DNA from: Planctomycetota bacterium | GTDB lineage: Bacteria > Planctomycetota > MHYJ01 > JACQXL01 | Assembly (NCBI GenBank): GCA_016235865.1 | Contig: JACRIK010000021.1 | Location: 97,226 to 161,225 of the forward strand | Reading direction: 5' to 3' | DNA length: 64,000 nucleotides | In this document: positions 171 to 50,307 of the stretch, one piece after another | Position numbering within the stretch: position 1 is the stretch's first letter | Layout: each line of letters starts with the position of its first letter | Position numbers and translations under genes: made by a program | Notes under the pieces: model-generated | Told to the model about the DNA's origin: nothing | The model's database searches: none | The model's input: the letters and a program-made list of their open reading frames with translations, nothing else

Positions 171-230
171 AGAGCGTAGAGCGTATAGTAAATTCCTTAA
201 CATCTATGCTATAAGCCCTATGCTCTAAGC
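171..230. repeat. repeat family A (agagcgtagagcgtatag ... ctatgctataagccctatgct)
   Basis: same bipartite architecture as 4479-4534. Confidence 0.7.
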
Positions 231-238
231 TGTAAATT

Positions 239-1783: not shown

Positions 1784-1789
1784 GAAGAG

Positions 1790-2020
1790 ATGAGAGATGA
1801 GAGTGGAGAGATGAGAGAGAATGACCTGGCGCTTATCAGCGCGGCGGTTTATGCGTATCTGTCGGATGGTCAGCCAGTCCTTCAGTCGGCCAGTCAACCG
1901 GCAGACAGGCAGACCGGCAGACCTTTTATCAGGCAAACCGGTAGACGTAACCGCTGGAAGCAGGCGTTTTTCCCTCAGGTAAATGAAAAAGGGATGAGGT
2001 GTAACCAATGGTCAAGATAA
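1790..2020 (+). CDS. putative small acyl-CoA carboxylase epsilon-like subunit
   Basis: 76 aa ORF between the 12S and 5S genes; 'ENDLALISAAVYAYL' resembles the EE(L)AA(I)xAA motif of AccE/PccE-type epsilon subunits; preceded by tandem gagatga repeats; overlaps next gene start by 13 nt. Confidence 0.35.
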   Translation: MRDESGEMRENDLALISAAVYAYLSDGQPVLQSASQPADRQTGRPFIRQTGRRNRWKQAFFPQVNEKGMRCNQWSR

Positions 2021-3864: not shown

Positions 3865-3869
3865 AGATT

Positions 3870-4472: not shown

Positions 4473-4478
4473 GAGCAA

Positions 4479-4534
4479 AGAGCGTAGGGCGTATAGCGTA
4501 GAAACTATAAGCTCTATGCTATAAGCTCTATGCT
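4479..4534. repeat. repeat family A copy
   Basis: agagcgtagggcgtatagcgtag...ctataagctctatgctataagctctatgct. Confidence 0.7.
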
Positions 4535-4537
4535 ATT

Positions 4538-5125
4538 ATGTGGCAGATAGAAAAAACCACCAAACGCTGTCAGGAATGTAACTCAACTATAGAGGTCAGC
4601 CAGCATTATTTTTCGGCGCTGTTCCCTAATCCAACGGATAAAACAGGGGAGCCGCGCCTATTGCGCCGGGATTTTTGCGCTAATTGTTGGGAGCGGCGGA
4701 CCGCGGCCGGTGAAGAGCCACCCTTTTCCTTCTGGCAGACTGTCATAGAACCACCGGCTGAGCCGCCCAAGACCCCGCGCGAGGTTCTGCTTAATTTCTT
4801 TGATAACCTATTTAAGGAAGCAACTGAAGTGCCCGCGGCAGAGAATACGTCTGTGCCGGTGGTTCAGGACACCAGATTAAAATCCCAGGTAAAATACCTC
4901 TTTGCTTTGATTATGATGCGCAAGAAATTATTGCGGCTGAAGAGCCCGCTGACCCGGGACAATACCCGGTATCTGGTCCTGGAGCGGTTTGCGAAGCCGC
5001 AGCGGAGTCCCGATAACTTCGGGGGTGATGCTAAGGTTTATGAGGTGGCCGAAGTAAACATTTCGGATGAGGAGTTAGATTCCCTAAGGCAGGAATTTTC
5101 ACAACTCTTTGAATTCAGGATATAA
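4538..5125 (+). CDS. hypothetical protein with N-terminal CxxC...CxxC zinc-ribbon
   Basis: 195 aa ORF; CQEC...CANC; no recognisable family. Confidence 0.5.
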   Translation: MWQIEKTTKRCQECNSTIEVSQHYFSALFPNPTDKTGEPRLLRRDFCANCWERRTAAGEEPPFSFWQTVIEPPAEPPKTPREVLLNFFDNLFKEATEVPAAENTSVPVVQDTRLKSQVKYLFALIMMRKKLLRLKSPLTRDNTRYLVLERFAKPQRSPDNFGGDAKVYEVAEVNISDEELDSLRQEFSQLFEFRI

Positions 5126-5141
5126 TCCGGTCTACTCCAGC

Positions 5142-6269
5142 TTATTTAACCTTGAAATCAAAGTCAGAGGCATCGCCTTTGGTAATCCCGCGCAGTTCCA
5201 GTTTCAGTTCATCAGGCCGGTCCGCAAAGGCCAGGGCATCTTCCACGCTGATGAAATTATTCTGGTAGAGGTACTTTAACGACTGGTTAAAGGTCTGGGT
5301 GCCGTAGTAGGTATTGCCTTCCTTGATGGCATCATATAATTCGCGGGTCTTGCCTTCATAAAGCATATCTTTGATAGTCGGCGTGGCCAGCAGTATTTCA
5401 GCGGCCGGAACCATTCCCTTGCCGTCGTGCCGGGCGATTAACCGCTGGGAAATCACGCCCTGCAGGAGCATCGACAACTGCTGGCGCAGAAGTGGATGCT
5501 GGTGGGGCGGAAAGAAATTGATAATCCGTTCCACGGTCTGGAATGAATTGATGCTGTGCAGGGTGCTGATGACCAGGTGACCGGTTTCGGCCGCACCGAT
5601 GGCCGCTTCCATCGTGTCTTTGTCGCGCATTTCGCCGATCATAATGATATCCGGGCTCTGGCGGACCGCATGTTTCAGCGCCGAGGTGAATGAAAACGTG
5701 TCAATTCCCAATTCTCTCTGGTCAATCAGTGATTTTTCGTCCATAAAGAGGTATTCTATCGGGTCTTCTATGGTGACCACGTGTTTGCGCCAGTTTTTAT
5801 TGATGTAATTTATCAGGGCGGCAATGGTGGTGGATTTTCCGCTGCCGGCGATGCCGGTGACAATGACCAGACCGCGGGTGGTGGTAGCTAATTTCTGCAA
5901 CGGTTTCATTGGTAGTCCCAGTTCTTCTATCGGCGGGATATTGGAGCGGATATAGCGCATGGCCATTCCGATAAAACCTTTTTGCCTGAAAATATTTACC
6001 CGAAACCGGCCCATGCCAAAGACCTCATAAGCAGTATCCACTTCACCCTGGTCCACGAATTTTTGCCTTAATTTTTCAGTGGTGATTTCCAGGAAGAGTT
6101 TTTCTACCATCTCCGGGGTGAGCGGGAAAGTCTGAGGGAGAACTTCCAATTTTCCGGTCAGTCGGATCATGGGTGGGGCGCCGACTTTGATGAACAAATC
6201 AGAGGCGTTCTTGGCCACCACGGCGGCAAATAATCCCTTGACGTCTAATTCCTTTTTAGTTTCAGACAT
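5142..6269 (-). CDS. pilT: type IV pilus retraction ATPase PilT
   Basis: 375 aa; Walker A GSGKSTT, PilT/PilU family signature regions. Confidence 0.85.
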   Translation of the reverse strand: MSETKKELDVKGLFAAVVAKNASDLFIKVGAPPMIRLTGKLEVLPQTFPLTPEMVEKLFLEITTEKLRQKFVDQGEVDTAYEVFGMGRFRVNIFRQKGFIGMAMRYIRSNIPPIEELGLPMKPLQKLATTTRGLVIVTGIAGSGKSTTIAALINYINKNWRKHVVTIEDPIEYLFMDEKSLIDQRELGIDTFSFTSALKHAVRQSPDIIMIGEMRDKDTMEAAIGAAETGHLVISTLHSINSFQTVERIINFFPPHQHPLLRQQLSMLLQGVISQRLIARHDGKGMVPAAEILLATPTIKDMLYEGKTRELYDAIKEGNTYYGTQTFNQSLKYLYQNNFISVEDALAFADRPDELKLELRGITKGDASDFDFKVK

Positions 6270-6315
6270 ATTTGATTCCTTTCAGTTTGACTTCCCGTAC
6301 TCTTAATGTAACAAA

Positions 6316-9294
6316 TTATAGATATTTCTTCAATATTTTTCCAGTATAAGAGCGTTCTTGCCTGGCAATCTCTTCAGGGGTGCCGGAAGCGACTACTCGG
6401 CCGCCTTCATCACCGCCTTCGGGTCCCAGATCAATGATATAGTCAGCCATTTTGATGACGTGCATATTATGTTCGATGACCACAACGCTGTTACCGCGGT
6501 CCACCAGTCGATTGAGGACATTGAGCAGTTTATTGATATCGGAGAAATGCAGGCCGGTAGTCGGCTCGTCAAGTATGTAAAGGGTTTTATTGGTGGCGGT
6601 CTTGCCTAATTCAGCTGATAGCTTGACCCGCTGGGCTTCGCCGCCTGAGAGCGTGATGCTGGATTGGCCCAGGGCGATATAGCCCAGTCCGACGTTATCG
6701 AGTGTCTTGAGGATGCGCACGATATGCGGGAAGTTCTGGAAGAATTCCACGGCGGCTGAGACCTCCATTTCCAGGACATCGGCGATATTCTTACCCCGGT
6801 AGGTGATGTCCAGGGTCTCGCGGTTATATCTTTTGCCTTTGCACTGTTCACAGGTGATGTAGACATCAGGCAGGAAGTGCATCTCGATTAGTTTAGTGCC
6901 TTGGCCCTGGCAGTCGGCGCATCGGCCGGCCTTGAGATTAAAACTAAATCGGCCGGACTGGTAACCCCGTAATCGGGCTTCCTTAGTCATGGTAAAGACC
7001 TTGCGTATCTCGTCAAAGACGCCGGTATAAGTGGCCGGATTTGAACGAGGCGTCCGGCCAATCGGCGACTGGTCAATGATAATTACTTTGTCAACATGTT
7101 CGGCACCGATAATGTCGTCGCATTCACCTGAACGAATCCGGCTCCGGTAAATTTTCTTCATCAGCCCTTTATAGAGGATTTCATTGACCAGCGTGCTTTT
7201 GCCTGAGCCGGATACGCCGGTTACACAGGTAAAGCAACCTAATGGGATGGGTACATTGATGTCTTTCAGGTTGAATTCCCGGGCCCTGATGATGTTTAGC
7301 CAGTTATGTTCGCTCGCGCGGTCTCTGCGGAGTTCGCTGGCGCGGTCACTGCGGCCTTCTGATTTGTCATTTTTTATTTTATTATTAGCAGTATTTGGCT
7401 GCGGGAATAGATTGCGGTCAAAACGCCTTTTCTTTGGCACTTCTATTCTTAATTTATTGGTCAGGTATTGCAGGGTCAGGGAATGGTTATTATTATTTTC
7501 TCCTGAAGTTCCGTTAGGCGGTTTTACAGTATTATTATTGTTTGTCATTTTACCGTTTAGGACATCCTTACTCGGAGCCGAGATGATTACCTGTCCACCC
7601 CGGGTGCCGGCGCCCGGACCGACATCAATCAGATAATCCGATGCCCTGATGGTGTCTTCGTCGTGCTCAACTACAATGACTGTATTGCCTAAGTTTCTTA
7701 ATTTTATCAGGGTATTGAGCAGGCGTTGGTTATCGCGTTGGTGCAGTCCGATGGTTGGTTCGTCAAGGACATAGCAGACCCCGACCAGACCTGAACCGAC
7801 CTGGGAAGCCAGCCGTATCCGTTGGGCCTCGCCGCCTGAAAGCGTCAAACTGCGCCGGTCTAATGTCAGGTAGGACAGTCCCACGTCTATCAGAAATGAA
7901 AGGCGGTTCTTGATTTCCTTTAACGCCATCTGTCCGATAAGCGTCTGTTCAGCGGTTAGGACGAGTTTATCAAAGAAGTGATAGGCGTCCTTAACCGCCA
8001 TCTGAATCACCTCGGAGATATTTTTTCCGCCGATGCGGACGGCCAGTGGCTCTGGTTTTAAGCGCGCGCCTTTGCAGGTTGGGCAGGGCAGTTCGCTCAT
8101 ATATGAGTGTATCCGGTGCTTGACTCCTTCGCTCTGGGTTTTGTAGAACCGGTTCTCCAAGTCCGGTATCACGCCGGTAAAACTGCGTTTATATTTGGCT
8201 TCATCTGGTTGATTGGTGCCGTACATCAGGATCCGTTTCTTATCTTCAGGCAGGTTGTAGAAAGGCGCATCCATAGCTATGTTGAAATCGCCGGCGAACT
8301 CCTTGATAACATACGAATAATAAATAGCCATCCGGTGTCCGGATTTACGCCAAGCCTCGATGGCTCCGTTAGCCAGCGAGAGCGACTTGTCAGGCACAAT
8401 CAGGTCCATATCCAGTTCCATCCGTGTGCCCAGGCCGTTGCAGCGTGGGCAGGCGCCATAAGGTGAATTAAACGAGAATATCCGCGGGCTTAATTCCGAT
8501 AAACTTATCTGGCATTCCGGACAGGCAAAATGCTCCGAGAATACCAGGTCGGAAAACCGTTTGCCCTGGGGCTGATGCGAGATGATGACCAATCCTTCGC
8601 CTAATCTCAATGCGGTTTCGACCGAATCAGCCAGCCGGCTCTTTTCTATGCCGGCAGGCTCAACGCTCAGTCTGTCGATGACTATCTCGATATTATGACG
8701 TTTGTATTTATCCAGTTTAGGGACGGATGAGCCGAGTTCTATAACCTTGTTGTCAACCCGGACTCGGACAAAGCCATTGCGCCGGATGCGTTCAAAGACA
8801 TCCCGATGTTCGCCTTTTTTGCCTCGGATAATCGGAGCCAGGACAATAATCCGGGAATAAGCCGGGAATGATTGGATATGCTGGATAATCTGCTGGGCGG
8901 ACTGTTTGACAATTGGTTTATTGCACTTGGGGCAGAAGGGTTGGCCCAACCGGGCGAAGATAACGCGCAGATAATCATATATCTCGGTAGTGGTAGCCAC
9001 GATCGAGCGAGGTGTGCCGGTTCCGCCCCGTTGTTCTATAGAAATCGTGGGAGGCAGGCCTTCGATAGATTCCACATCCGGTTTGGCAATTTGTTCCAGG
9101 AACTGCCGGGCGTAGGCCGAGAGCGATTCGATATAACGGCGTTGTCCCTCGGCGTAAATGGTATCAAAAGCCAGGGAGGTCTTGCCTGAGCCGGAGACAC
9201 CGGTTACCACAATTAGTTTATCACGCGGGATATCAATGTTGATATTCCTGAGATTATGCTCCTTGGCTCCGCGTATGGATATATGATTGGTCAT
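6316..9294 (-). CDS. uvrA: excinuclease ABC subunit A (UvrA) with internal low-complexity/repeat insertion
   Basis: 992 aa; two ABC ATPase modules, Zn fingers; N-term '[42 protein letters not shown]'. Confidence 0.9.
7311..7356. repeat. dispersed repeat family B (modules X+Y) inserted in-frame in uvrA
   Basis: cgcgcggtctctgcggagttcgctggcgcggtcactgcggcc; translated '[13 protein letters not shown]' on minus strand. Confidence 0.85.
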
Positions 9295-9458
9295 AGGGGT
9301 AATTAATCCTGCAGTATATATTATTTTGTAAACTGTGTCTACGTTTTGGGATTTATTCTTTGACGATGGCTAGTGGTTTTTGGTATAGAATAAAGGTAAT
9401 GAACTAAGCGAAGCGTGAACTCGAAGAGGCCGCGAAGCGTGACCCTGAGCGAAGCGAA

Positions 9459-10304
9459 ATGAAAACCTTAATGCAATGTACTATTAAAAAGCCTGTTTTC
9501 TGTGAAGGCATCGGACTTTTTACCGGGCAGAAAGTGAAATTGTGTTTCCAGCCCGCTAAAGTTAATGATGGCATAACATTCATTGCCAATGGCGCCAGAA
9601 TTTCTGCTTCTATCAGTAACGTGCTGACCCAATACCGCCGCAATGCCATCGGGAAAGACGGCATCATTATCGAGACTATAGAACACCTAATGGCAGCTTT
9701 GAACGGATTAGGTATTACCAATATTGATATCGAGATTTATTCTGATAGTCAATCTGCAACCTATGAGATACCGAATACGGACGGCAGCGCTAAGTTATTT
9801 GTGGATTTATTATTAAAAGCCGGTATTGAGGAACAGCGCGCACCCAGGAGAGTCCTGCGAATAAATGCGCCGGTTAATTACAGGGATGGCGAGTGCTCTA
9901 TTATTGCCTTGCCAGCCGCTGACGATTCATTAACTGTTGACTATACCTTTTCGCATAGCGCCGTGATTATCGGCAATCAGCATTTATCAGTGGAACTGGT
10001 ACAGGATAACTTTATTTCGGAGATAGCCCCGGCCCGAACGTTTTGTATGGCCGACGAAGTGGCGTCTCTTCAGGCACAGGGAATAGGTAAGTCAGCCAAT
10101 TATCAGAATGTTCTGGTGGTGGATAATGACAAAATCGTCCAGAACACCTTGCGCTTTAAAGACGAATTCGTGCGCCATAAAATACTTGATTTAATCGGCG
10201 ATTTATACTTGTTAAATGCCTCGTTATTTGCTAAAATAGCAGCGGTTAAGACCGGCCATAGACAAAATGTAGAATTTGTCAGGAAATTGGTTGGATTACT
10301 CTAA
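9459..10304 (+). CDS. lpxC: UDP-3-O-acyl-N-acetylglucosamine deacetylase
   Basis: 281 aa; LpxC family; gene order lpxC-fabZ-lpxA. Confidence 0.85.
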   Translation: MKTLMQCTIKKPVFCEGIGLFTGQKVKLCFQPAKVNDGITFIANGARISASISNVLTQYRRNAIGKDGIIIETIEHLMAALNGLGITNIDIEIYSDSQSATYEIPNTDGSAKLFVDLLLKAGIEEQRAPRRVLRINAPVNYRDGECSIIALPAADDSLTVDYTFSHSAVIIGNQHLSVELVQDNFISEIAPARTFCMADEVASLQAQGIGKSANYQNVLVVDNDKIVQNTLRFKDEFVRHKILDLIGDLYLLNASLFAKIAAVKTGHRQNVEFVRKLVGLL

Positions 10305-10326
10305 GGCAGCTGAATTAATCAGATAA

Positions 10327-10824
10327 ATGGAGGATAATGTTATGAATCCAGAAAATAGCGAAATTAAATCTTCCGATGGGAATAAAGGCGTGAGGCTTGA
10401 CATCAGGGAAATCCATAATATCCTACCGCATCGGTATCCTTTTCTCCTGGTGGATCGGGTTATAGAAATGGAAGGATACCAGCGTGCGGTCGGGATAAAG
10501 AACGTCACGATGAATGAACCGTATTTCCAGGGGCATTTTCCGGGTATGCCAATTATGCCCGGCGTTCTGCAGATTGAGGCGATGGCGCAGTTGACTGGTA
10601 TTATGCTTCTTTCCCGGGCCGGTAACGAAAAGAAAATAGCCATGTTTTTGTCGATTGACGAGGCTAAGTTCCGGCGATCGGTCATTCCGGGAGACCAGTT
10701 GCGCATAGAAGTCAATACCACCAAGGTCAAGTCCAGAATTGTTGAAGCCGAAGCCAAGATTACCGTGGAAGGAGAGGTGGCTTCAGAATCAAAGTTCAAG
10801 TTTATGCTGGTAGATAAGGAATAA
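10327..10824 (+). CDS. fabZ: 3-hydroxyacyl-ACP dehydratase FabZ
   Basis: 165 aa; 'HRYPFLLVDRV...GHFPGMPIMPGVLQIEAMAQ' hot-dog fold signature. Confidence 0.9.
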   Translation: MEDNVMNPENSEIKSSDGNKGVRLDIREIHNILPHRYPFLLVDRVIEMEGYQRAVGIKNVTMNEPYFQGHFPGMPIMPGVLQIEAMAQLTGIMLLSRAGNEKKIAMFLSIDEAKFRRSVIPGDQLRIEVNTTKVKSRIVEAEAKITVEGEVASESKFKFMLVDKE

Positions 10825-10826
10825 TT

Positions 10827-11642
10827 ATGACAAATATTCATCCGACGGCCATTATTGACAAGAGCGCGGAGATTGACCAGAGCGTTACCATCGGTCCATA
10901 TACGACTATCGGGCCTGATGTCAGAATCGGCGCGGGTAATATTATCGGCCCTTATTGCCATTTTGAATCGCATACCACTATCGGCCGGAATAATAAGTTC
11001 CTGGCCTATTGCAGTGTTGGCACCCCGCCCCAGGATGTCGGCTACAAGAATGAGCCGACCCGCCTGATTATCGGCGATAATAATACCTTCAAGGAATTTG
11101 TCACGCTCAACCGCGGTACTATGAAGGACAGGCAGGAGACGGTTATCGGCAACAATAATTATCTGATGGCATATGCCCATGTCGGACACGACAGCGTTTT
11201 AAGCAATAATATCATTATGGCCAACGCCGTTCAGGTGGGCGGACACGTTCACATAGAGGATTACGCGGCTTTAGGCGGGATGGTCGGGGTTCACCATCTG
11301 GTTACTGTTGGAGCCCATGCTTTTATCGGAGGAATTGCCCGGGTGATTCAGGATGTGCCTCCCTATATGATTGCCGAAGGCCATCCGGCCAAGGTGCGCG
11401 CCCTTAATGCCATCGGCCTGGAAAGAAGAGGGTTCCCGCCGGAGATTATCAGCGCTTTAGAAGCGGCGTACAAACTTATCTGGCGCGGTAAGATAACAAC
11501 CGCCGAGGCATTTCAGAAACTGCTTTCGCCTGAAAAGAATCCCTGCAAAGAGGTTCAGTATCTGATAAAATCACTGCAAAACACCCGGGACGGCAAACAC
11601 GGGCGCTATCGCGAATCGCTCCGCAAGGTGCCGGCCAGGTAG
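10827..11642 (+). CDS. lpxA: acyl-ACP--UDP-N-acetylglucosamine O-acyltransferase
   Basis: 271 aa; left-handed beta-helix hexapeptide repeats, LpxA family. Confidence 0.85.
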   Translation: MTNIHPTAIIDKSAEIDQSVTIGPYTTIGPDVRIGAGNIIGPYCHFESHTTIGRNNKFLAYCSVGTPPQDVGYKNEPTRLIIGDNNTFKEFVTLNRGTMKDRQETVIGNNNYLMAYAHVGHDSVLSNNIIMANAVQVGGHVHIEDYAALGGMVGVHHLVTVGAHAFIGGIARVIQDVPPYMIAEGHPAKVRALNAIGLERRGFPPEIISALEAAYKLIWRGKITTAEAFQKLLSPEKNPCKEVQYLIKSLQNTRDGKHGRYRESLRKVPAR

Positions 11643-11708
11643 TCAATAGTGAATTGTGGAATGCGAATTGTGAATTGACTAATCCGCAATCCGCAATTCG
11701 TATCCATT

Positions 11709-13805
11709 ATGTTCCAAAAAAGGATTACGGTCATTGTCGGATTTATCGCGATAACCTTTTTTATCATTGTCATTAGGTTATTCGCCTTGCAGGTTATCAA
11801 TAATTCTTATTATCGAACCCAGGCGCGTAAATATGCGACTCGGATTGAACTCATCGCCGACCCGCGCGGCAAGATTCTTGACCGTAACGGTAATACCCTG
11901 GTTAGCAACAAACTTGCCTTTGATCTTTTTATCACACCGGCAATATACCTAAAACCGAAGACGCCGGCCGGCAAGACCGCAGTCAGTCCCGCTAATAGCG
12001 ACAAAACCGCCGGCAAGAATGATTTGCCGTCTAAATCTGATGTTTCTAAGGCGGCTGATTACAATACGGATGACGATTTGGTTCAGTGGGAAGTGATCAG
12101 GAAGCTGACCGGGCTGCTAAATATTAAATCAGACTTGTTTATTTCAAAGATAAAAGCCATTCAGGAGAAAATCATTGCTCAGGCCCAGACCAGACCGGAG
12201 CGGGAACAAAAACGTTATATCAAGCAACAATACCGCAATAAATACCGGATTTTCTCGGGCCTGACGCTCAATCAAGCCATGCAGATAGAGTCGCACCCGG
12301 AGATTTTCAGGGGCTTCAGCGTTTCGGAAACCATCTCGCGTAATTATATCTATAACGATCTGGCCTGTCATGTTATCGGATATACCGGTCCGATCTGGAA
12401 AGAGGAATATGACCAGTTTGTGGAGAACGGCTATTTTGACGATATGCTCAACCAGGAGATAGACGAGAATACCTACCAGGCGTTGATTGATATGGGCGAA
12501 TTTAAGAATGTGTTCATCGGCCGGAGCGGTATCGAACGGATGCATAACCGCTTGCTGACCGGGCGATACGGTGTTCGGATGAGTGAATTCGATTTTGCCA
12601 CCAGGCAGAAGGACGAGTTGAGCCGGACCGAGTCCGTTCCGCCGACGGATATTATGCTGACCATTGACCTGAATCTGCAGAAGAAACTGGAAGCGGCGCT
12701 TAAAAATAAGTCAGCCGGCGCCGGAATCGTAATGGATATACATACCGGTGAGATCCTGGCCATGGCCAGCGCGCCGTCGTTTAATCTCAACCTGCTTCAG
12801 CCGCCGGTGGATAGTCAGGTAACCGAGTTTATCTCCAAGTCGCCCCTGAAACCATTGTATAACCGGGCCATTTCCGGCGAATACCCGCCCGGGTCGGTCT
12901 TTAAGATTATCACCGCCCTGGCCGCCTTGGAAGAAGGCAAGATTACGCCTTATACGCCCTTTTACTGCAACGGCCATTTTTCGCCTAAATACAAGAAATT
13001 CAAATGTTGGATTGCCGAGCATAACCGGGAGCATGGTTCTCTTTCTTTAGAAGAGGGTTTCAAGCATTCCTGCAATATTTTCTTCTTTAATGCGGGTAAT
13101 TTAGCCGGCGGTGAGGCGATTACCAGATGGGCGCGGAATATGGGGTTCGGTGAGCGCGCCGGCATAGATGTCTCGGGCGAGAAAAAAGGCCGGGTGCCTA
13201 AGTCGCCGGCTGATAAAGACCTGAAAACAGGTAGACCTAATTGGGCGCTGGCTGATACCCTCAATATGTCCATCGGCCAGGGTGACTTGATGGTTACGCC
13301 GCTCCAGATAGTCCGGATGGTGGCGGCCATTGCCAACGGCGGCACGCTGGTCAAGCCGCGGATTATCAAGACCGATATACCGAAAGAGCCGTTAGAATCA
13401 TTACATGAAAACGATTCAAAACTTTCTGTTTCATTCAAGCCCGGAGACAGCAAGCCGGCTGTGGTTCAAAAGAATGAGCCGCCTCAAAAGATAAATATCT
13501 CCGAAAGCACGCTGACGCATATCCGTAACGGGATGTATAAAGTGGTGCATTCCGAGGGCGGGACCGCCCACGGTAGCGGGGTGCGGAATTTCCCAGCCGC
13601 CGGCAAGACCGGCACGGCCGAGGTCTGGGGCAAGAAATCGCACGCCTGGTTTGCCGGATTCGCGCCTTTTGACAAACCGCAATTCGCCTTTGTGGTCGTG
13701 GTGGAATACGGCGGCAAGGGTTCTGAGGTCTCGGCGCCCATCGTGGCCTCATTCCTGCCCGAAGCCCTGGCCATATATCAGCCGGCCCAACCGCAGGGAA
13801 AATAA
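11709..13805 (+). CDS. mrdA: penicillin-binding protein 2-type peptidoglycan D,D-transpeptidase
   Basis: 698 aa; N-terminal TM, SxxK (SVFK), KTG motifs; PBP dimerisation + transpeptidase domains. Confidence 0.8.
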   Translation: MFQKRITVIVGFIAITFFIIVIRLFALQVINNSYYRTQARKYATRIELIADPRGKILDRNGNTLVSNKLAFDLFITPAIYLKPKTPAGKTAVSPANSDKTAGKNDLPSKSDVSKAADYNTDDDLVQWEVIRKLTGLLNIKSDLFISKIKAIQEKIIAQAQTRPEREQKRYIKQQYRNKYRIFSGLTLNQAMQIESHPEIFRGFSVSETISRNYIYNDLACHVIGYTGPIWKEEYDQFVENGYFDDMLNQEIDENTYQALIDMGEFKNVFIGRSGIERMHNRLLTGRYGVRMSEFDFATRQKDELSRTESVPPTDIMLTIDLNLQKKLEAALKNKSAGAGIVMDIHTGEILAMASAPSFNLNLLQPPVDSQVTEFISKSPLKPLYNRAISGEYPPGSVFKIITALAALEEGKITPYTPFYCNGHFSPKYKKFKCWIAEHNREHGSLSLEEGFKHSCNIFFFNAGNLAGGEAITRWARNMGFGERAGIDVSGEKKGRVPKSPADKDLKTGRPNWALADTLNMSIGQGDLMVTPLQIVRMVAAIANGGTLVKPRIIKTDIPKEPLESLHENDSKLSVSFKPGDSKPAVVQKNEPPQKINISESTLTHIRNGMYKVVHSEGGTAHGSGVRNFPAAGKTGTAEVWGKKSHAWFAGFAPFDKPQFAFVVVVEYGGKGSEVSAPIVASFLPEALAIYQPAQPQGK

Positions 13806-19103: not shown

Positions 19104-19943
19104 ATGAATAATGAACTTGTGCCGGTTACAAAAATAGCCGTTTTTCGCGGCCGGAAAATACGCAAAACCATCCACAAAAACGAATGGTGGTTTTCTATAG
19201 AAGATGTAGTTCGGGTCCTTACAGATTCATTACAACCAGCCGGATATATTAAGGATATGCGGCGCCGGGACCCGGAGATAGCCAAAGGGTGGGGGCAAAT
19301 TGCCACCCCCCTTTTGATTCAAACAGCCGGCGGTCCGCAAAAGGTGAATTGCGCTAATACCGAAGGCATGTTCCGTATTATCCAGTCCATTCCCTCGCCC
19401 AAAGCCGAGCCGTTCAAACGCTGGCTGGCTAAGGTGGGCTACGAGCGGGTCCGGGAGATAGAAGACCCGGAACTCGGCACCAAACGCACCCGGGCATTGT
19501 ATAAAGCCAAGGGCTACAGCGATGACTGGATAGAAAAACGGATGCGCGGCATTGCCATCCGCGAGGAACTGACCGACGAATGGAAAAAGCACGGAGTTGA
19601 AAGGGACAAGGAATACGAGATTCTGACCGCGGAAATCTCCCAAGCGACATTCGGGCTTACCCCGAGCCAGTATAAGAAACTCAAAAACCTGAAGCGTCAA
19701 AACCTGCGCGACCATATGACCGACCTGGAACTGATTTTCTCTATGTTAGGCGAGGCGTCAACCACCCAGATTACCAAGGTGGAACATCCGGACGGATTTG
19801 TGGAAAACAAGAAAGTGGCCCGGCGGGGCGGCAATGTGTCCGGAATAGCCCGCAAGAAACTGGAGCAGGAAACCGGCGGCCGGGTGGTCAGTCCGCAAAA
19901 CTATCTGGCAAATCAGCAGAATAAACGGCTAAAAGATAAGTAA
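19104..19943 (+). CDS. DinD-like DNA-damage-inducible protein with Bro-N-like N-terminal domain
   Basis: 279 aa; N-term 'KIRKTIHKNEWWFSIEDVVRVL' Bro-N-like; C-terminal region resembles E. coli DinD. Confidence 0.6.
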   Translation: MNNELVPVTKIAVFRGRKIRKTIHKNEWWFSIEDVVRVLTDSLQPAGYIKDMRRRDPEIAKGWGQIATPLLIQTAGGPQKVNCANTEGMFRIIQSIPSPKAEPFKRWLAKVGYERVREIEDPELGTKRTRALYKAKGYSDDWIEKRMRGIAIREELTDEWKKHGVERDKEYEILTAEISQATFGLTPSQYKKLKNLKRQNLRDHMTDLELIFSMLGEASTTQITKVEHPDGFVENKKVARRGGNVSGIARKKLEQETGGRVVSPQNYLANQQNKRLKDK

Positions 19944-33302: not shown

Positions 33303-34589
33303 GTGCATAAAATAAAACTCCCTTACGGCAAGAAATATCAGTATTTCCGTATTCCTTCATCGGTAAAATACAGGATATTGGAGGTGCGCGAGCCGGTACC
33401 GATTACTGATTTTTCAGGCAATTTGATACATGCCGTCAATCACCCGATTAATTCAGCTCGATTTGATTCTTTCTTTAACGTCCAGGATAAAATAGCCATT
33501 CTTATCCCGGATAAAACCCGTCGGTGCCCATCTGATAAGGTGCTTGATATTGTTATCAAACGCCTTACTGGTATGGGCGTGGACCGGGCAAATATCACCG
33601 TTATTCTGGCCCGGGGTTCTCATTCTGCTCACGCCCCGGCGGAGATAACTAAATTGGTTGGTCGGAGTACTTCCCGGGCTATAAAAGTCATAGACCACGA
33701 TGCCAATAAATCCACCGAGCTATCATATATCGGGACGACCTCAAGAGGTACGCAGGTAAGAATTAACAAGCATTGCGCCGATGCCGATAAAATCATTATT
33801 ATCGGGACAGTTGGCTATCATTATTACGCCGGCTTTTCAGGCGGCCGGAAACTCATCCTGCCCGGTATTTCCGCCTATCAGACCATCCAGCAGAATCACA
33901 GTTTGGTCCTGAATAAACCGCCTCTGAAAGGCAAGAATTCTGATGCCTGCCTAGGTAAACTTGACGGCAATCCGGTAAATGAGGATATGATAGAAGCCGC
34001 CCGGTTAGCCGGACGGGGAAGAGTTTTCTCCATCAATCTGGCGATTAATAGCCGGGATGAAATAATCAGAATGTTTTGCGGTGATATTATTGATGCGCAT
34101 CGTCGCGGGTGTGACTTTGTGGACAGGATTTATCAAGTACCGCTTAAAGGTAAGGCGGATTATATTATTGCTTCGGCAGGCGGGTATCCTACGGATGTTA
34201 ATTTTATTCAGACTCATAAAGCAATAGAAAACGCTGTTTATGCCTTAAAGGATAGAGGGAAAATGCTGATTTTGGCCGAATGCAAAGAGGGCATTGGTTC
34301 GGATATATTTATGGGTTTTTTGCAGCACCGGACACCGGAAAAAATGGAAGCCGAACTGCGCAAGAAGTTTGTGGTTTCAGGCCATACGGCCTTATGCACC
34401 TTGATAAAGGCAAATAGGTTTGATATCTACCTTTATTCTGGGCTCAAGGATTCTCTTGTCAGGAATTTACACTTTACGCCGATGGATGACGTCCAGCGGG
34501 CGATGGATATTTTCTTCAGGCAGATGCCTGATGACGCGACGGTATTTGTTCTGCCCAAGGGGTGCGGTGTCAGGCCGGTTGTTTCTTAG
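33303..34589 (+). CDS. LarA-like (nickel-dependent lactate racemase family, DUF2088) protein
   Basis: 428 aa; LarA N- and C-terminal domain family resemblance. Confidence 0.65.
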   Translation: MHKIKLPYGKKYQYFRIPSSVKYRILEVREPVPITDFSGNLIHAVNHPINSARFDSFFNVQDKIAILIPDKTRRCPSDKVLDIVIKRLTGMGVDRANITVILARGSHSAHAPAEITKLVGRSTSRAIKVIDHDANKSTELSYIGTTSRGTQVRINKHCADADKIIIIGTVGYHYYAGFSGGRKLILPGISAYQTIQQNHSLVLNKPPLKGKNSDACLGKLDGNPVNEDMIEAARLAGRGRVFSINLAINSRDEIIRMFCGDIIDAHRRGCDFVDRIYQVPLKGKADYIIASAGGYPTDVNFIQTHKAIENAVYALKDRGKMLILAECKEGIGSDIFMGFLQHRTPEKMEAELRKKFVVSGHTALCTLIKANRFDIYLYSGLKDSLVRNLHFTPMDDVQRAMDIFFRQMPDDATVFVLPKGCGVRPVVS

Positions 34590-42623: not shown

Positions 42624-43853
42624 ATGCCAATAAAGTTTATTAAGGTGGTTGCATCAGTATTGATTATAATCTGTGCTTTTATTCTTAACTATGGTTGCCT
42701 TGACAGTGGCGGGCATACACCGCATACTTCTCCTTCCGAACCGCCTCCCAAGATACCCATAATAGACGGCTGGGCTAAGATTTCAGCCGGATACGGGCAT
42801 ACCCTGGCCCTGCAAACCGACGGTACGCTCTGGGCTTGGGGAGATAATTCTTATAATCAATTAGGTTTGGGGGAATATTACTATTATTATGGGGATTATT
42901 ATGCGGGCAGTTCCGGTTATTATAACTATTATTCTAAAAATATTCCGACCATAGTTGGGAGCGATACGGATTGGGTTTCTGTGGCGGCCGGCGAGAAACA
43001 TAGTGCGGCCCTGAAAACCGACGGCACGCTCTGGGTTTGGGGCAACAACTCCGATGGCCAATTGGGCGACGCGACTCATACGTATAAAAGCACTCCGACC
43101 AAGATTAGCGACACTGATTGGGCAACTATCGCGGTTGGTTACAATCACACCATTGCGCTTAAAACCGGCGGCACGCTCTGGGCCTGGGGCAAGAATGATT
43201 TCGGGCAGGTAGGCGACGGCACAACCTTCAGCAAGAGCATTCCCACCCAGATTGGAATAGATACGAATTGGTCGGCGATTACCGCCGGGCAGGGGCATAC
43301 CATAGCATTGAAAAGCAATGGCGAACTCTGGGCCTGGGGCAAGAATGATTTCGGGCAATTAGGCGATGGAACAACGACATCTATAAACCAGCCAATTAAG
43401 ATAACCGGCACCAACTGGTCCGCGGCGGCTTGCGGCGCCAATCACACGGTAGCGCTGAAAAGCGACAATTCGCTCTGGGTTTGGGGCGACAACACCAGCG
43501 GCCAATTAGGCGACGGCACAATCATATCCCGGACCCAGCCCACCCAGATAACTGGCACCAACTGGGCCGGGATTGCCTGCGGCGCAAATCATACCCTGGC
43601 TACCAAGGCCGATGGCACTTTCTGGGCCTGGGGCTATAACTACTATGGTCAATTAGGCAATGGCATACCGGACAATACAAGCAATCCGATTCAAATTACC
43701 GGCACAACCTGGTCAATTATTGCGGCCGGCAGTGACCGTTCATCTGCCATTAAATCAGATGGCACGCTCTGGTCCTGGGGCAAAAATTATAGTGGCGCTT
43801 TAGGATTAGGCAATTATGCCGATAAATTTATCCCAACCCAGGTCGGGGAATAA
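42624..43853 (+). CDS. RCC1-repeat (beta-propeller) lipoprotein with Tyr-rich insertion
   Basis: 409 aa; seven 'DGTLWAWGxNxxGQLGDG' RCC1 repeats; N-terminal signal/Cys; 'YYYYGDYYAGSSGYYNYY' segment. Confidence 0.8.
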   Translation: MPIKFIKVVASVLIIICAFILNYGCLDSGGHTPHTSPSEPPPKIPIIDGWAKISAGYGHTLALQTDGTLWAWGDNSYNQLGLGEYYYYYGDYYAGSSGYYNYYSKNIPTIVGSDTDWVSVAAGEKHSAALKTDGTLWVWGNNSDGQLGDATHTYKSTPTKISDTDWATIAVGYNHTIALKTGGTLWAWGKNDFGQVGDGTTFSKSIPTQIGIDTNWSAITAGQGHTIALKSNGELWAWGKNDFGQLGDGTTTSINQPIKITGTNWSAAACGANHTVALKSDNSLWVWGDNTSGQLGDGTIISRTQPTQITGTNWAGIACGANHTLATKADGTFWAWGYNYYGQLGNGIPDNTSNPIQITGTTWSIIAAGSDRSSAIKSDGTLWSWGKNYSGALGLGNYADKFIPTQVGE

Positions 43854-46435: not shown

Positions 46436-48460
46436 ATGAGTAAAAGGTTAGTTGCCATATTTGTTATCGGTATATTTTTGAGTTTTGGCATAATATCAAT
46501 GGATACTTACGGCTGGTGCCCGAATCCGCCCAAGATGGGTGGATACACTCCGCCGCCCAGGCCCAAGCCGCCTGACCCTGCGCCAGAGGCGCCTAAGGAA
46601 CAACCTAGGCCGCCCGAGGCGCCCAAGGAGGCGCCCAAGACACCCGAGTCACCCAAGGAACAGCCCAAACAGTCCGAGACACCCAAGGAGTCCGAGACGC
46701 CAAAGCAACCCGAGGCGCCCAAGGACCAGCCGGCAACCCCGCCGGTTCCGGCAACACCGGAAGCTCCTAAGGATACTACGCCACCACCGCCTCCTCCTCC
46801 GACCACGGATACGCCTTTTGACCCCAATAGTTCTGTCGGAGGCACAGGAGGCAAGAGGCCAACCAGCGGAGGCGCATCTGTTACCCGTCCGCCATTGGAT
46901 TTCGGACTGCAACCCCGCATTCAGGCAATGACCCAGGGCACCTCTAATCTCCTGGGATATGTTGAACCCTGGGAGGTCTGGTGGACCCGTAACCGGGCCA
47001 AGTACCTGAAATTCCGCCAGCCCATAGAATTTATCAGTAAAACAAACGACGGCTATGTTAACGTGGCCAAGGAATACGACGAGATTTTCAATCTCTTCAA
47101 CAAAGCGCTGCACGACAAGGACCTCTATGTCCGGGTGGCGGCCGCCCAGGGATTGAGCAAGATGGGCGATAACAAGGTCAATCCCATCCTTAAAAAGGCA
47201 TTTTACGATGAGAAGCAGTTGTACGTGGAGAATAACATTATTTTTGCCATGGGCCTGATGGGCGATGCGACAAACGCCATTGTCCTGAAAGAGATAGCGG
47301 TCAATAAGCAGGAGACCGAGATAAACCGCGCCTATGCCATCCTGGCTTTAGGGTATGTCAAGAACAATGAAGAGGTGATTAAGGTATTAAAGGAATTAGC
47401 CGGCCAGCCGGACAAGGATGAGGTGGTGGCCAGCGCGGCCCTGGCACTGGGCAATCTTAAAGAAGCGTCCGCCGTTCCGATCCTGGCCAAACTTATCCAG
47501 CGGGGCGTTCTTTACCAGGGTGAGAAAAGTGACCGCAAGGTTAGGACGTATGCGGCCTTGGGCCTTGGCCGCATCGGCACTAAAGAGGCCGTGAACGAGC
47601 TGAAGAAATCGTTGGACGATAAGGATAAGGATGTCCAGGAATGCGTGGCCATTGCCCTGGGCTCAACCAAATTGCCCGAGGCCCTGAATCCGTTGATTCA
47701 ACTGCTATCAGACCGCGATTTGTCGGTCCGGGGATTCGCCGCCATTTCTCTAAGCCAGATATTGGATAAGGCGGTGTATCCTTTGCTATCTGATGCTTAC
47801 CGGAATGCCAAAGACCCGCAGGTAGACGGTATGATTGTCCTGGCCATGGGCTTGAACGGCGATAAGCGGGCCATCCCTGAACTGCAGAAGATTCTCACCA
47901 CCAAGACCAAGCGGTCCCTGATTAAAGGTGCAGCGGCTATTGCCCTGGGGCTCTTGAAGGATACCTCATCCGTCCAGATTATCTCCGACCTGCTGGACAA
48001 GAGCAATGACCCGGTGCTGGCGGCTCACCTGACCCTGAGTTTGGGGATGATCGGCGATATTAAGGCCGTGGATGTCATCAAGAAGAAGTGGGCGGATGTC
48101 GGAAGCAAGACGACCAATATTGCCTATACCAATATGGCCGTGGCCCTAACGATGCTGGGCGCCAGGGATGAGCTGGTGCTGCCGATGATTCGCAAGCACT
48201 TTGATAAGAAAGAAATGACCGCCCTGCGCCAGCATGCGATTCATTCGGCCGGACTGATCGGCGGCAAGGATATTATCAGCGATGTGGCCAAATTATATGA
48301 TGACGAGACCAACCCGCAGGTGCGTAATTACATCGTCAGTTCGCTGGGTTTTGTGGTTGACGTCAATGAAACCCCGCTGCTTACCAAGGTTACCGCAGAC
48401 AATGACTACAATGTCTTTATGTGGATTATGGAACACCTTCTGCCGCTGCCGCTGTGGTAA
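46436..48460 (+). CDS. secreted HEAT-repeat (PBS-lyase-type) protein with Pro/Lys/Glu-rich N-terminal linker
   Basis: 674 aa; signal peptide; 'PEAPKEQPRPPEAPKEAPKTPESPKE' repeats; multiple 'VRxxAAxALGxxGD' HEAT-like repeats. Confidence 0.75.
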   Translation: MSKRLVAIFVIGIFLSFGIISMDTYGWCPNPPKMGGYTPPPRPKPPDPAPEAPKEQPRPPEAPKEAPKTPESPKEQPKQSETPKESETPKQPEAPKDQPATPPVPATPEAPKDTTPPPPPPPTTDTPFDPNSSVGGTGGKRPTSGGASVTRPPLDFGLQPRIQAMTQGTSNLLGYVEPWEVWWTRNRAKYLKFRQPIEFISKTNDGYVNVAKEYDEIFNLFNKALHDKDLYVRVAAAQGLSKMGDNKVNPILKKAFYDEKQLYVENNIIFAMGLMGDATNAIVLKEIAVNKQETEINRAYAILALGYVKNNEEVIKVLKELAGQPDKDEVVASAALALGNLKEASAVPILAKLIQRGVLYQGEKSDRKVRTYAALGLGRIGTKEAVNELKKSLDDKDKDVQECVAIALGSTKLPEALNPLIQLLSDRDLSVRGFAAISLSQILDKAVYPLLSDAYRNAKDPQVDGMIVLAMGLNGDKRAIPELQKILTTKTKRSLIKGAAAIALGLLKDTSSVQIISDLLDKSNDPVLAAHLTLSLGMIGDIKAVDVIKKKWADVGSKTTNIAYTNMAVALTMLGARDELVLPMIRKHFDKKEMTALRQHAIHSAGLIGGKDIISDVAKLYDDETNPQVRNYIVSSLGFVVDVNETPLLTKVTADNDYNVFMWIMEHLLPLPLW

Positions 48461-48483
48461 TAATTACGATAGGAGTGATCAAA

Positions 48484-48969
48484 ATGTGCCTCAAGTGCGG
48501 TTGTCAGGGGGTGGTTAACCTCAATCAGCGGGAATATCTTAAAATAATCTCTTTACATCCATTCAAGGACAAGGTCATCCATAATAGCGGATATGATTTT
48601 TATATTACGGTTTCGGAGCCGGCGCCTCAGGTGATTGACCTTATTTTCTATGTAGAGAATCCCTTTTTCAAGAGGCCGGTCCATTCAGTCAAGGAGATAT
48701 TATTGTATCCCGATGGTTCTTCAACACCGCAGCGGTTTACTTTAGATACGGATATCGCCGGTGTTTCGTCATTGAGATACCGCTATCAGGAACCATTTGA
48801 GGCGAAACTAAAGATAATAACCGTAGCGTCTGACCGGCAGAATCTTTCGGCAGAAACGACTGTTCAAATCGGCTCGCCCAAGCCGTCTTATTTTTTCCTT
48901 ATTACCTTTGTGATAACAATCCTGCTTGCTGTTGCTTTTGTCTCTCTGAAGAGAGGACGGCGTAGTTAA
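48484..48969 (+). CDS. hypothetical protein with C-terminal TM anchor
   Basis: ORF track gives 48421-48969; Met at 48484 avoids overlap with upstream gene; C-terminal hydrophobic 'YFFLITFVITILLAVAFV'. Confidence 0.4.
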   Translation: MCLKCGCQGVVNLNQREYLKIISLHPFKDKVIHNSGYDFYITVSEPAPQVIDLIFYVENPFFKRPVHSVKEILLYPDGSSTPQRFTLDTDIAGVSSLRYRYQEPFEAKLKIITVASDRQNLSAETTVQIGSPKPSYFFLITFVITILLAVAFVSLKRGRRS

Positions 48970-49008
48970 GCACATATATGATGCCTGTTGCCTGCCGCTT
49001 TCTGAAGT

Positions 49009-50307
49009 ATGAATATCCTTAAATACAGATTCATCCATCGGTTGCTGATAAACCCGGTGTTCATATCTATTATCCGCTTTCCATTTGTCGTTGCCTTTTT
49101 CCTGATAATCTTCAGTGGATTATTCGGCAGTATCTATAGGAATTCCGTTAATCTTATGGTCGGTGTCATCTGGCTGGTCTTTATTTCGTTCACCGCTATT
49201 ATTGGAGGCAAAATCTGGTGTCTGGTCTGCCCCTGGAATACCCTGGCCGAATGGATGCAGTATATCCTACGCCTGCCTGATGCCAAATTCCAGGTTCCAA
49301 GGATATTTCGTAATCTCTGGATCGCCGTCTTTTTCTTCCTGTTAATTATTTGGCTGGAATATGCAATAGGGCTGGCTAACAATGCGCGGTTTATTGCTTA
49401 TCTGGCAATAATTATTTTTGGTATAACATTTATCTCGGTGTTATTATTTCCCAGAAAGTCATTCTGTCGTTATGGCTGTCCGGTCGGCGCCATCTGTGGG
49501 TTATACGGGCTTTTTGCGCCGCTCGAACTGCGCAGCGCTGATAAGGAGACCTGCCGGCAATGCCTGACCAAGGATTGTATTAAGGGCAATGATAAGGGAA
49601 ATGCCTGTCCTGTCTTTGAGTATCCCGGCACGATGGACGATAATCTGTATTGTATCCTCTGCACCGAATGCATCAAAACCTGCCCGAATGACAACATTGC
49701 CGTTAATATCAGGAAGCCCGTCGCAGACCTCTTAAAATTCAGGGTGTTATCATTCAGCGAGATATTTATGATTGTGACCATGCTGGCCTTATCCATATTC
49801 GGCGCAATGAATATAAGCCGCATTTATTTCCTGATAATAGATTGGTCGTTGGCAAAATTGGCATTACCCGAAATAGTTTCTTTATTATTCTTGATACTGA
49901 TACTGGTTCTTATTATTTTATTCCTCTTTTATGCCTTATCGCGTATTTATCGCACAAATCTATCTGTCGTTACCTATACATTTTTGCCAATCGCATTGTT
50001 TAACCATCTGGCAAATACCGTAAAACTGTTCTCTATCAGGGCCGAGGAGGTAATTCCGCTTATCTCAGATCCGCTGGGTTTATCCTGGAATCTCTTTGGC
50101 AGCGCCGGGTACCTGCCCAAACCGCTTTTTGATGCCGGGACTCTTCAGTACATAGCCGGGCCGGTGATGATTATCGGGCTGTTATATTCCATATATCTGG
50201 CATATCGGCTGGTTAGGATGCAATCTAAATCAAAGGCGGCGCTTGTTTTATTGTTAATGCCGATGGCCCTGTTGGTTTGGTTCAACTGGTGGCTGATACC
50301 GCAATAA
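49009..50307 (+). CDS. polytopic membrane 4Fe-4S ferredoxin-type protein (NapH/MauN-like polyferredoxin)
   Basis: 432 aa; multiple TMs; 'CLVCPWN', 'CRYGCPVGAICG', 'CRQCLTKDC...CPVF', 'CILCTECIKTCP'. Confidence 0.65.
   Translation: MNILKYRFIHRLLINPVFISIIRFPFVVAFFLIIFSGLFGSIYRNSVNLMVGVIWLVFISFTAIIGGKIWCLVCPWNTLAEWMQYILRLPDAKFQVPRIFRNLWIAVFFFLLIIWLEYAIGLANNARFIAYLAIIIFGITFISVLLFPRKSFCRYGCPVGAICGLYGLFAPLELRSADKETCRQCLTKDCIKGNDKGNACPVFEYPGTMDDNLYCILCTECIKTCPNDNIAVNIRKPVADLLKFRVLSFSEIFMIVTMLALSIFGAMNISRIYFLIIDWSLAKLALPEIVSLLFLILILVLIILFLFYALSRIYRTNLSVVTYTFLPIALFNHLANTVKLFSIRAEEVIPLISDPLGLSWNLFGSAGYLPKPLFDAGTLQYIAGPVMIIGLLYSIYLAYRLVRMQSKSKAALVLLLMPMALLVWFNWWLIPQ

Follow-up and report, generated by a model that had tools for sequence, protein, structure and literature searches.

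In a 64,000-nucleotide stretch of DNA from an uncultured planctomycete (hereafter the window), three consecutive genes on the + strand encode, in this order, a periplasm-directed HEAT-repeat protein, a small membrane-anchored protein and a membrane polyferredoxin (pfd). Gene order, conservation, natural fusions, domain homology and invariant residues suggest that the small protein and pfd form a membrane reductase resembling CcoG and NosR, which would serve a periplasmic metal site, probably of copper, with the HEAT protein as a clade-specific accessory. I place the probability of this reading at about 0.4. An earlier reading of the same DNA, made from its letters alone (the sequence-only reading), had proposed the three genes as one redox module. 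Part of this stands, as the trio recurs within a subclade of Planctomycetota, but the more general unit is the pair of small protein and pfd, with the HEAT gene restricted to that clade.

The small protein and the polyferredoxin as a pair

The HEAT gene (674 amino acids, aa) spans positions 46436..48460, the small gene (161 aa) 48484..48969 and the pfd gene (432 aa) 49009..50307. The sequence-only reading was correct as to these three open reading frames (ORFs), their coordinates and their tight spacing, with 23 nucleotides (nt) between the HEAT and small genes and 39 nt between the small and pfd genes. No terminator-like site was found between the three genes, and a hairpin lies 3' of the fumarase-beta gene upstream. 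Each of the three proteins has many homologues, and the pattern is therefore not due to chance. The small protein and pfd are each 100% identical to an NCBI protein from a metagenome-assembled genome (MAG), the window being part of a MAG of Planctomycetota/Brocadiia type.

A survey of 185,579 species genomes yielded 440 pfd loci, spread over Planctomycetota, Methanoperedens, Hydrothermarchaeota, Thermoleophilia, Elusimicrobiota, Omnitrophota and other lineages. A broader profile of the small domain, whose non-seed sequences had E values of 1e-15 to 1e-31 in the first iteration, shows that at least 31 non-redundant loci, drawn from many phyla, have this domain directly before pfd (position -1) or joined to it in a fusion. 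In these it occurs as a free-standing gene or as the C-terminus of a NapH-like protein, and overlaps of 1–28 nt between the small and pfd genes are common. A profile built from Planctomycetota alone also retrieves the -1 gene in Nitrospinota and Deltaproteobacteria loci (L023, E 3.8e-8; L034, E 4.5e-6), and in one planctomycete (P0013, locus L002) the small domain is fused N-terminally to pfd, in the order signal/transmembrane (TM) segment, domain, TM, pfd. The unit conserved across many phyla is the small protein with pfd, the former being an obligate-looking partner of the latter.

The small gene starts at the ATG at 48484, with AGGAG 8 nt upstream, and the orthologues begin at the same MCLKCGC. 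The mechanically assigned ORF start, a GTG at 48421, was rejected, as the frame upstream is the 3' end of the HEAT gene, and both the ribosome-binding site and the orthologues favour the ATG. This sets the size at 161 aa, where 160–180 aa had been given; the C-terminal TM anchor described with it is borne out, and consists of a single helix at residues 137–155 followed by the basic tail KRGRRS (48889..48957, from hydropathy and structure prediction). The AlphaFold2 (AF2) model (pLDDT 81) shows a beta-sandwich at residues 28–130 and a helix at residues 136–160. The sandwich is immunoglobulin (Ig)-like, and its PDB matches are weak and generically Ig-like (E 3.5e-4 to 5e-3), namely DUF4426, CrdA, PmoD, SoxY and FnIII, of which CrdA and PmoD are copper proteins. 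One homologue gives a weak YtkA-like match in Pfam. The window protein itself matches no Pfam or NCBIfam sequence family, and nothing in Pfam even at E up to 10, DUF1775 included. A narrow profile run against 1.84 billion proteins recovered no more than 15 cluster representatives, and 115 further homologues are all annotated 'hypothetical', none with a Pfam domain.

Of 124 members of the partner family, 118 possess a C-terminal TM. In 95, a small residue and His-His directly follow an N-terminal hydrophobic segment, often reading AHHILG(I/L)PHYxY, and several more that were scored 'none' or 'H', including N-terminally truncated ones, still show AHH. Four carry CxxCGC close behind the hydrophobic segment (three scored as CxxCxC, plus P0146), and five, that of the window included, start MCLKCGC without any hydrophobic segment. 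These five signal-peptide-less sequences begin MCLKCGCQG (48484-48525 in the window; also P0126, P0129 and P0132) and are 54–60% identical. The alignments and the census align the CxxCxC motif of the window protein (Cys2, Cys5 and Cys7; 48487..48504) with the His-His or CPECGC that other members show after a signal peptide. The window protein looks like the product of an in-frame deletion that removed the TM and an AHHESLAAPE segment; the longer form retains CRCRCG ahead of its TM.

For the 432-aa protein, the sequence-only reading had described four Cys clusters of NapH/MauN type. All four are present (C71xxC74P; C153xxxC157P; C182xxC185xxxxC190...C200P; C215xxC218xxC221xxxC225P), and 14 motif cysteines are invariant in 50 homologues, C163 of 'GAICG' being the exception. 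Its sole Pfam match is Fer4_5 (E 1.5e-7). The best NCBIfam models are of NapH/MauN, at 53.4 bits against a cut-off of 213 (TIGR02163) and 51.6 against 234 (NF007013), and the cut-off of every named family is missed. With a pfd family profile built from 50 sequences as query, hhalign scored YccM at 98.3% (E 2.5e-14) and NapH at 97.9% (E 6.4e-13), which upholds the NapH/MauN type at a level below the family cut-off; S. meliloti FixG reached 78.7% (E 1.7e-5), for the core only. Every hhalign match is confined to profile columns ~69–259, which start near residue 50 of the window pfd and extend into the ferredoxin domain, and the Pfam and NCBIfam matches on the window pfd begin at residues 44–50. 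Profile comparison places pfd in the NapH/YccM/CcoG superfamily, and in none of its named families.

Alignment, hydropathy and AF2 divide the protein, with ~9 TM helices, into three parts. TM1–TM4 make up the NapH/YccM-like core (49057..49449), with CxxCP (C71, C74) after TM2. A loop predicted to be cytoplasmic (49456..49713) holds CxxxCP (C153, C157) and the two [4Fe-4S]-type motifs, and a family-specific C-terminal domain (residues ~240–432; 49729..50298) contributes five TM helices. This last domain possesses a near-invariant H333 in TM7 and an invariant D354-P355 in an SDPxGxxWNLFG loop, predicted to be periplasmic. It has no Pfam match at E up to 10 and did not align to NapH, YccM or FixG. 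Neither this domain nor the whole of pfd has a PDB match: the best E in the fold search was 0.25, and the profile hit the ferredoxin motif alone among PDB sequences. The AF2 model of pfd (pLDDT 86, pTM 0.85) shows nine long helices and the ferredoxin domain.

Hydropathy and the positive-inside rule indicate that the N-terminus is inside, with 12 lysines plus arginines in the Fe-S loop. Natural N-terminal fusions give independent support, as these run signal peptide, periplasmic domain, TM, basic linker, pfd (P0013; P0024, with two YHS domains; P0030, with NosL). On both grounds the N-terminus, both Cys-Pro motifs and the ferredoxin domain with its two [4Fe-4S] sites are predicted to lie in the cytoplasm, contrary to the extracytoplasmic Fe-S part of the original proposal, and in agreement with the published NapH topology. 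FMN_bind was not found on pfd, which starts directly with TM1. Among the 120 top homologues, YHS is fused to pfd in 18, in one to three copies, and NosL in one (P0030/L011). In these relatives, YHS or NosL, both recognised metal-binding domains, takes the N-terminal periplasmic place of the partner.

The HEAT-repeat protein in one planctomycete clade

The HEAT protein matches HEAT_2 (E 1.4e-52) and HEAT_PBS (E 5.8e-25) in Pfam, and the PDB chains that it matches identify alphaRep (consensus), YibA and CpcE as its closest solved relatives. It lies far under the cut-offs of the equivalog families, scoring 90 against 300 for NblB, 56 against 330 for CpcE and 19 against 220 for a third family. By hydropathy, its N-terminus (46436..46519) consists of K/R and a 19-residue hydrophobic segment, which ends at a lipobox-like Cys28-Pro29. 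The basic and hydrophobic character fits the signal peptide claimed by the sequence-only reading; because Cys28-Pro29 is invariant in eight orthologues, the protein may instead be lipidated or signal-anchored, rather than carry a plain signal peptide that would be cleaved. A flexible linker of ~120 aa follows (46520..46885), with 30% Pro and five copies of PE(A/S)PK(E/D), as expected from the PEAPKE-type linker reported before; DNA tandem repeats at 46612-46731 fall within it. Its length differs among orthologues, and it is nearly absent in L008 and L019. Next come an EPWEVWW motif (46964..46984), invariant in 8/8 orthologues and used as the scan pattern that recovered 17 metagenome loci, and the array itself (47048..48415), whose C-terminal end is a conserved HLLPxP motif. 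The array comprises ~13 repeat cores of PBS-lyase type between residues 240 and 640, with a spacing of 30–35 aa, in line with the more than 10 repeats first described.

I defined the subclade as the window together with loci whose pfd is at least 47% identical to that of the window, and nine loci with upstream DNA are informative. A HEAT orthologue lies directly upstream of the small gene in seven of these nine (the window, L004, L014, L006, L007, L008 and L019), and in L008, as in the metagenome locus L109, the small gene is immediately preceded by two HEAT paralogues. The orthologues that adjoin the pair fall at 76–84% and at 39–42% identity to that of the window. Two lineages with 47–49% pfd identity retain the trio in wholly different flanks (L008, L019 and L109), where AP-endonuclease-like, CutA1, HEAT, small, pfd, NicO/DsbD_2, HEAT+SQHop-like and 163-aa protein genes are found. 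These different surroundings argue that the HEAT association is more than shared synteny. The co-occurrence in related genomes on which the three-gene proposal depended is thus seen within the clade, in two genomic contexts.

Two other arrangements of the HEAT gene were noted. On one metagenome contig (L107 4068-11133), four HEAT paralogues stand in tandem, the family expanding there independently of pfd. In L004 (~6143-6475; also in L005, L097 and L098), ~310 nt are inserted between the HEAT stop and the small start; they contain a 105-aa ORF that is GIY-YIG-like by eye, and may represent a small mobile insertion inside the operon.

The HEAT gene might also be a mere syntenic neighbour, the functional unit being the small protein and pfd, with the HEAT protein acting elsewhere in the periplasm. 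Its absence from many loci fits this. In L001 (79% pfd identity) it is deleted, ~38 nt of its 3' end (…CCGCTGCCGCTGTGGTAA) being left before an intact small gene (L001 7352-7458) and pfd; no HEAT gene lies near the small-pfd fusion of L002; and ~65 loci of other phyla contain no HEAT orthologue at phmmer E 1e-100 or better, the sole other phmmer match outside the subclade being weak (E 7e-8) and ~6 kb downstream of pfd in L050. HEAT homologues of 35–64% identity also occur without the pair (L100, at 64%, L103, L105 and L106), as do the tandem paralogues of L107, and the insertion in L004 separates the HEAT and small genes. I nevertheless consider a neighbour-only role unlikely, since the adjacency persists down to 39–42% HEAT and 47–49% pfd identity, where CutA1 ... 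NicO replace fumarase ... asd as flanks, since the paralogues of L008 and L109 both stand directly before the small gene, and since the window genes are 23 nt apart with no terminator-like site. The HEAT protein is a frequent, clade-restricted and dispensable companion of the pair. That HEAT repeats and polyferredoxins had not been described together is consistent with a literature search, in which no paper mentioned a polyferredoxin along with either HEAT repeats or YHS, and none brought together three of NapH, YccM, CcoG and NosR.

Metal handling, electron transfer and genomic context

Transporters and metalloregulators recur near pfd in the wider family. A NicO/DsbD_2 transporter and CutA1 are found in L003, L008, L019 and L109; a CopA-type P1B ATPase with two HMA domains adjoins pfd in the Methanoperedens locus L009; regulators combining an AsnC-type helix-turn-helix with TRASH lie near it in seven Methanoperedens loci; and in seven loci of Thermoleophilia/Actinomycetes its neighbours include BlaI/CopY-family repressors together with BlaR-like proteases.

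In three loci the NicO/DsbD_2 gene is directly downstream of pfd (L003 1550-3022; L008 8274-9794; L109 11365-12942). The encoded proteins have an N-terminal periplasmic domain of ~230 aa, a signal peptide ending A/G|HDI (a small residue, then His-Asp) and a His-rich loop, HGHDHDHEH..., and the next gene encodes a protein with HEAT repeats and a squalene-hopene-cyclase-like (SQHop) domain. In Methanoperedens (L009, L044, L052, L055, L056 and others), the gene overlapping the pfd start encodes, in place of the sandwich, a ~460-aa protein with DNNxxY...W.D.R repeats and a C-terminal TM, and is preceded by a TRASH-domain regulator and a CcsA/CcmC-like gene. Judged on titles and abstracts, none of the papers found that mention Methanoperedens and a polyferredoxin concerns the pfd family. 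Plasmid-borne relatives in the cultured Deinococcus ficus, Aulosira and Pseudanabaena (~25% identity) have uninformative contexts.

These data can be put together in a mechanism, whose cofactor content, topology, metal binding, metal identity, direction of electron flow and any HEAT contact I infer. The small protein and pfd would together make up a membrane redox module with two components, belonging to the NapH/YccM/CcoG/NosR class. In pfd, two [4Fe-4S] clusters would face the cytoplasm and two Cys-x(2-3)-Cys-Pro motifs would lie at the inner face of the membrane; it would draw its electrons either from the quinol pool or from a donor in the cytoplasm. Its C-terminal TM domain would, through the putative periplasmic SDPxGxxWN loop, touch the anchored, periplasm-facing partner, whose N-terminal motif (His-His in most, CxxCxC in the window) may bind a metal ion, most likely copper. 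The module would reduce this ion or maintain it reduced, and then pass it on, by the same logic as CcoG or NosR with NosL. In the subclade, the HEAT protein on its long Pro-rich tether would form a third, accessory periplasmic component, probably a scaffold for docking or holding.

A metal reductase would explain why YHS or NosL fills the partner position, why His-His or CxxCxC stands at the membrane-proximal N-terminus of the partner, and why transporters and metalloregulators recur nearby. It would also explain why the closest characterised analogues combine a polyferredoxin with an Ig-like domain (CcoG; PMC7558416) or with a copper chaperone (NosR/NosL). Of the readings weighed here, it accounts for the largest share of the observations, and I hold it tentatively. 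A bolder generalization, possible but doubtful, is that the family represents an unrecognised, widespread system in which electrons cross the membrane to an interchangeable periplasmic metal head (His-His sandwich, CxxCxC sandwich, YHS or NosL). This would be a new class of metal-ion reductase or chaperone in anaerobes, and the HEAT lipoprotein a new kind of adaptor.

Several points weigh against a metal reductase. All members of the pfd and partner families are annotated 'hypothetical', metal binding and redox activity being predicted, and the hints as to the metal are mixed (Cu, Ni/Co, Fe). The window contains no cuproenzyme or transporter linked to the trio. The window's small protein has neither a signal peptide nor His-His, which makes its membrane side uncertain, and beyond the N-terminal motif none of the His, Cys or Met residues of the beta-sandwich is invariant. 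His-His is internal in fusions of a NapH-like protein with this domain (e.g. L024), and an N-terminal histidine brace therefore cannot be universal. By hhalign, pfd is nearer to NapH and YccM than to FixG/CcoG, and the role given to the HEAT protein is conjecture. Lastly, I took a census of 148 ORFs at most two genes from pfd, excluding the close clade and near-duplicate loci of Methanoperedens and Thermoleophilia. The commonest neighbours outside the clade belong to electron transfer and not to metal transport (Fer4-type 20/148, Fer4_5 8/148), and cytochromes c and molybdopterin oxidoreductases are also among them.

This census suits the main rival explanation, in which pfd is a respiratory quinol dehydrogenase subunit of NapH type through which a periplasmic redox enzyme or Fe-S protein would exchange electrons with the quinol pool; the partner and the HEAT protein would dock that enzyme, and metal would not be a substrate. 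NapH and YccM as the best profile matches fit it as well, as do the operons of Planctomycetota, Elusimicrobiota, Omnitrophota and other phyla in which pfd lies among genes resembling Nap or alternative complex III (ACIII). Where Nap-like, these read cytochrome c, twin-arginine (TAT) molybdopterin oxidoreductase, NapG-like, NapH-like (with or without the His-His, HH, domain), pfd, NapG/NapF-like Fe-S protein, ACIII-like; and in L112, Rieske and cytochrome b genes lie upstream. In the window and its close relatives, the surroundings of the trio lack cytochrome genes and genes for NapG-like or NapA-like proteins, and a purely respiratory role leaves the replacement of the partner by YHS or NosL without explanation, and does not account for the conserved HH or CxxCxC or for the transporters and metalloregulators nearby. 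I regard it as rather unlikely in this form, though the two are not exclusive, as a quinol-driven reductase of a periplasmic metal site fits both.

The L112 operon (1-13711, on a 1.38-Mb contig) begins with a GltD-like flavoprotein, a Rieske protein, cytochrome b, a multi-domain cytochrome c and a TAT molybdopterin oxidoreductase, and continues with NapG-like, NapH-like and HH-type small proteins, pfd, an Fe-S protein and a weak HEAT_2 ORF of 199 aa. I did not count this last ORF in support of the HEAT association, as it has no signal peptide and looks poorly conserved.

The polyferredoxin FtrD of FtrABCD offers another precedent, on which the small protein and pfd would reduce ferric iron and feed Fe(II) to Feo-type uptake. 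In L001, Fur, FeoB and FeoA/DtxR lie directly downstream of the pair; in the archaeal locus L025, FeoB and DtxR/FeoA adjoin pfd; and FeoB_N appears twice among the 148 neighbouring ORFs. An iron reductase is nonetheless improbable: it draws on two loci only, the YHS, NosL, HMA-domain ATPase and TRASH regulators indicate copper, the 64-kb window has no feo genes, and the reductase activity of CcoG is for Cu(II) and does not extend to Fe(III) (PMC7558416).

The rest of the window encodes housekeeping functions, including carboxylases, UvrA, Lpx, PBP, EF-P, LipAB, TopA, 2-oxoacid:ferredoxin oxidoreductase, MiaB, LarA, ClpB and ValS. A search of all 64 kb for the partner reductases or cytochromes that the sequence-only reading had proposed to look for returned none, and no transporter partner of the trio was found there either. 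No Fe-S or molybdopterin gene adjoins the trio, and the window has no napG/napA and no nosZ/DFY genes; a ccoHIS/cbb3 context is absent from the window and from every fetched locus. The companions of the L008-type loci (NicO, HEAT/SQHop, the 163-aa protein and CutA1) were sought in the window by tblastn, with no match, and no metal riboswitch was detected in the DNA preceding the trio or related loci, the only hits being tRNAs. I do not regard the flanking fumarase-beta, asd and mnmG genes as functionally tied to the trio, as this synteny is kept in close relatives only and is absent in L001, L008 and L019.

Three other window features were recorded. A homologue of LarA-type (nickel-pincer) lactate racemase, encoded at 33303-34589, is mentioned only since relatives of the trio adjoin NicO-type Ni/Co transporters. 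A Bro-N domain protein, of a phage-associated family, is encoded at 19104-19943, just upstream of the part of the window with the lowest GC content (20-22 kb, 0.455). The gene at 42624-43853 encodes an RCC1-repeat protein of 409 aa that has a hydrophobic segment at its N-terminus; L007, too, has an RCC1 protein near the trio.

The field that the locus touches is the reduction and handover of copper and other metals by bacteria and archaea on the outer side of the membrane. Little is understood of the membrane polyferredoxins of the NapH/NosR/CcoG class, among which CcoG alone has an assigned chemistry. The locus belongs to a sizeable, never-annotated subfamily with its own C-terminal membrane domain and an anchored partner, neither of which has a Pfam family or a solved structure, and the natural YHS and NosL fusions supply a concrete, testable hypothesis. 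The HEAT component is a curiosity of one planctomycete clade, and its link is the weakest part of the proposal. Should the function stay unknown, what is described here counts as a 'conserved hypothetical' module, well defined but not a discovery.

Comparison with known systems

With NapH/MauN (TIGR02163) and E. coli YccM, pfd has in common a core consisting of a TM pair, Cys-x-x(-x)-Cys-Pro, a second TM pair, Cys-x3-Cys-Pro and two [4Fe-4S] motifs. The four TM helices, two Cys-Pro motifs and two C-terminal [4Fe-4S] motifs that define the NapH core are all found in pfd, the first motif being CxxCP and not CxxxCP. Unlike NapH, pfd possesses an additional 5-TM C-terminal domain of ~190 aa with its own conserved loop, and in the window it comes with an anchored beta-sandwich partner of its own and without napG or napA nearby. 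Distant members of the family do show a Nap-like context, of napG/napA type.

NosR is a NapH-like membrane Fe-S protein that works with the periplasmic copper lipoprotein NosL in the maturation or maintenance of N2O reductase. The fusion of a NosL domain directly to pfd in P0030/L011 recalls this pair. In contrast to NosR and NirI, pfd has no periplasmic FMN-binding domain, and the partner in the window is not NosL.

CcoG is membrane-bound, carries two [4Fe-4S] clusters and two Cu sites, and has in the periplasm an Ig-like domain to which no role has been assigned (PMC7558416). CcoG/FixG and the window pair are alike in joining a membrane polyferredoxin, with two [4Fe-4S] and Cys motifs, to an Ig-like domain that in CcoG is periplasmic and in the pair is predicted to be so; CcoG is associated with copper handling and P1B ATPases (PMC7558416), and the CopA-type ATPase beside pfd in L009 parallels this link. 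pfd differs in having no TIGR02745, Fer4_18 or FixG_C match, and the Ig-like domain of the window is a separate, N-terminally placed protein instead of a C-terminal domain.

The partner resembles YcnI (DUF1775), a Cu(II)-binding protein with a signal peptide, an N-terminal His, a cupredoxin-like domain and a C-terminal TM (PMC8424229). Most partner-family members are built likewise, with a signal peptide, a predicted mature N-terminus that bears His, a beta-sandwich and a TM at the C-terminus, whereas the window protein starts MCLKCGC and has neither the signal peptide nor the His. Counterparts of the His, Glu and Trp ligands of YcnI were not identified. Its likeness to the copper-binding sandwiches of CopC, CrdA, PmoD and YtkA-like proteins is weak, and consists in the generic Ig-like fold (E >=3.5e-4).

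The HEAT protein shares its repeat type and length with the PBS-lyase-type proteins CpcE/F, NblB and YibA and with alphaRep. Unlike CpcE/F and NblB, it is predicted to be exported, bears a Pro-rich tether and EPWEVWW and HLLPxP motifs of its own, and has no phycobiliprotein context. What is known among these proteins is the superfamily of pfd; what is new is the partner domain and the C-terminal domain of pfd, both entirely unannotated.

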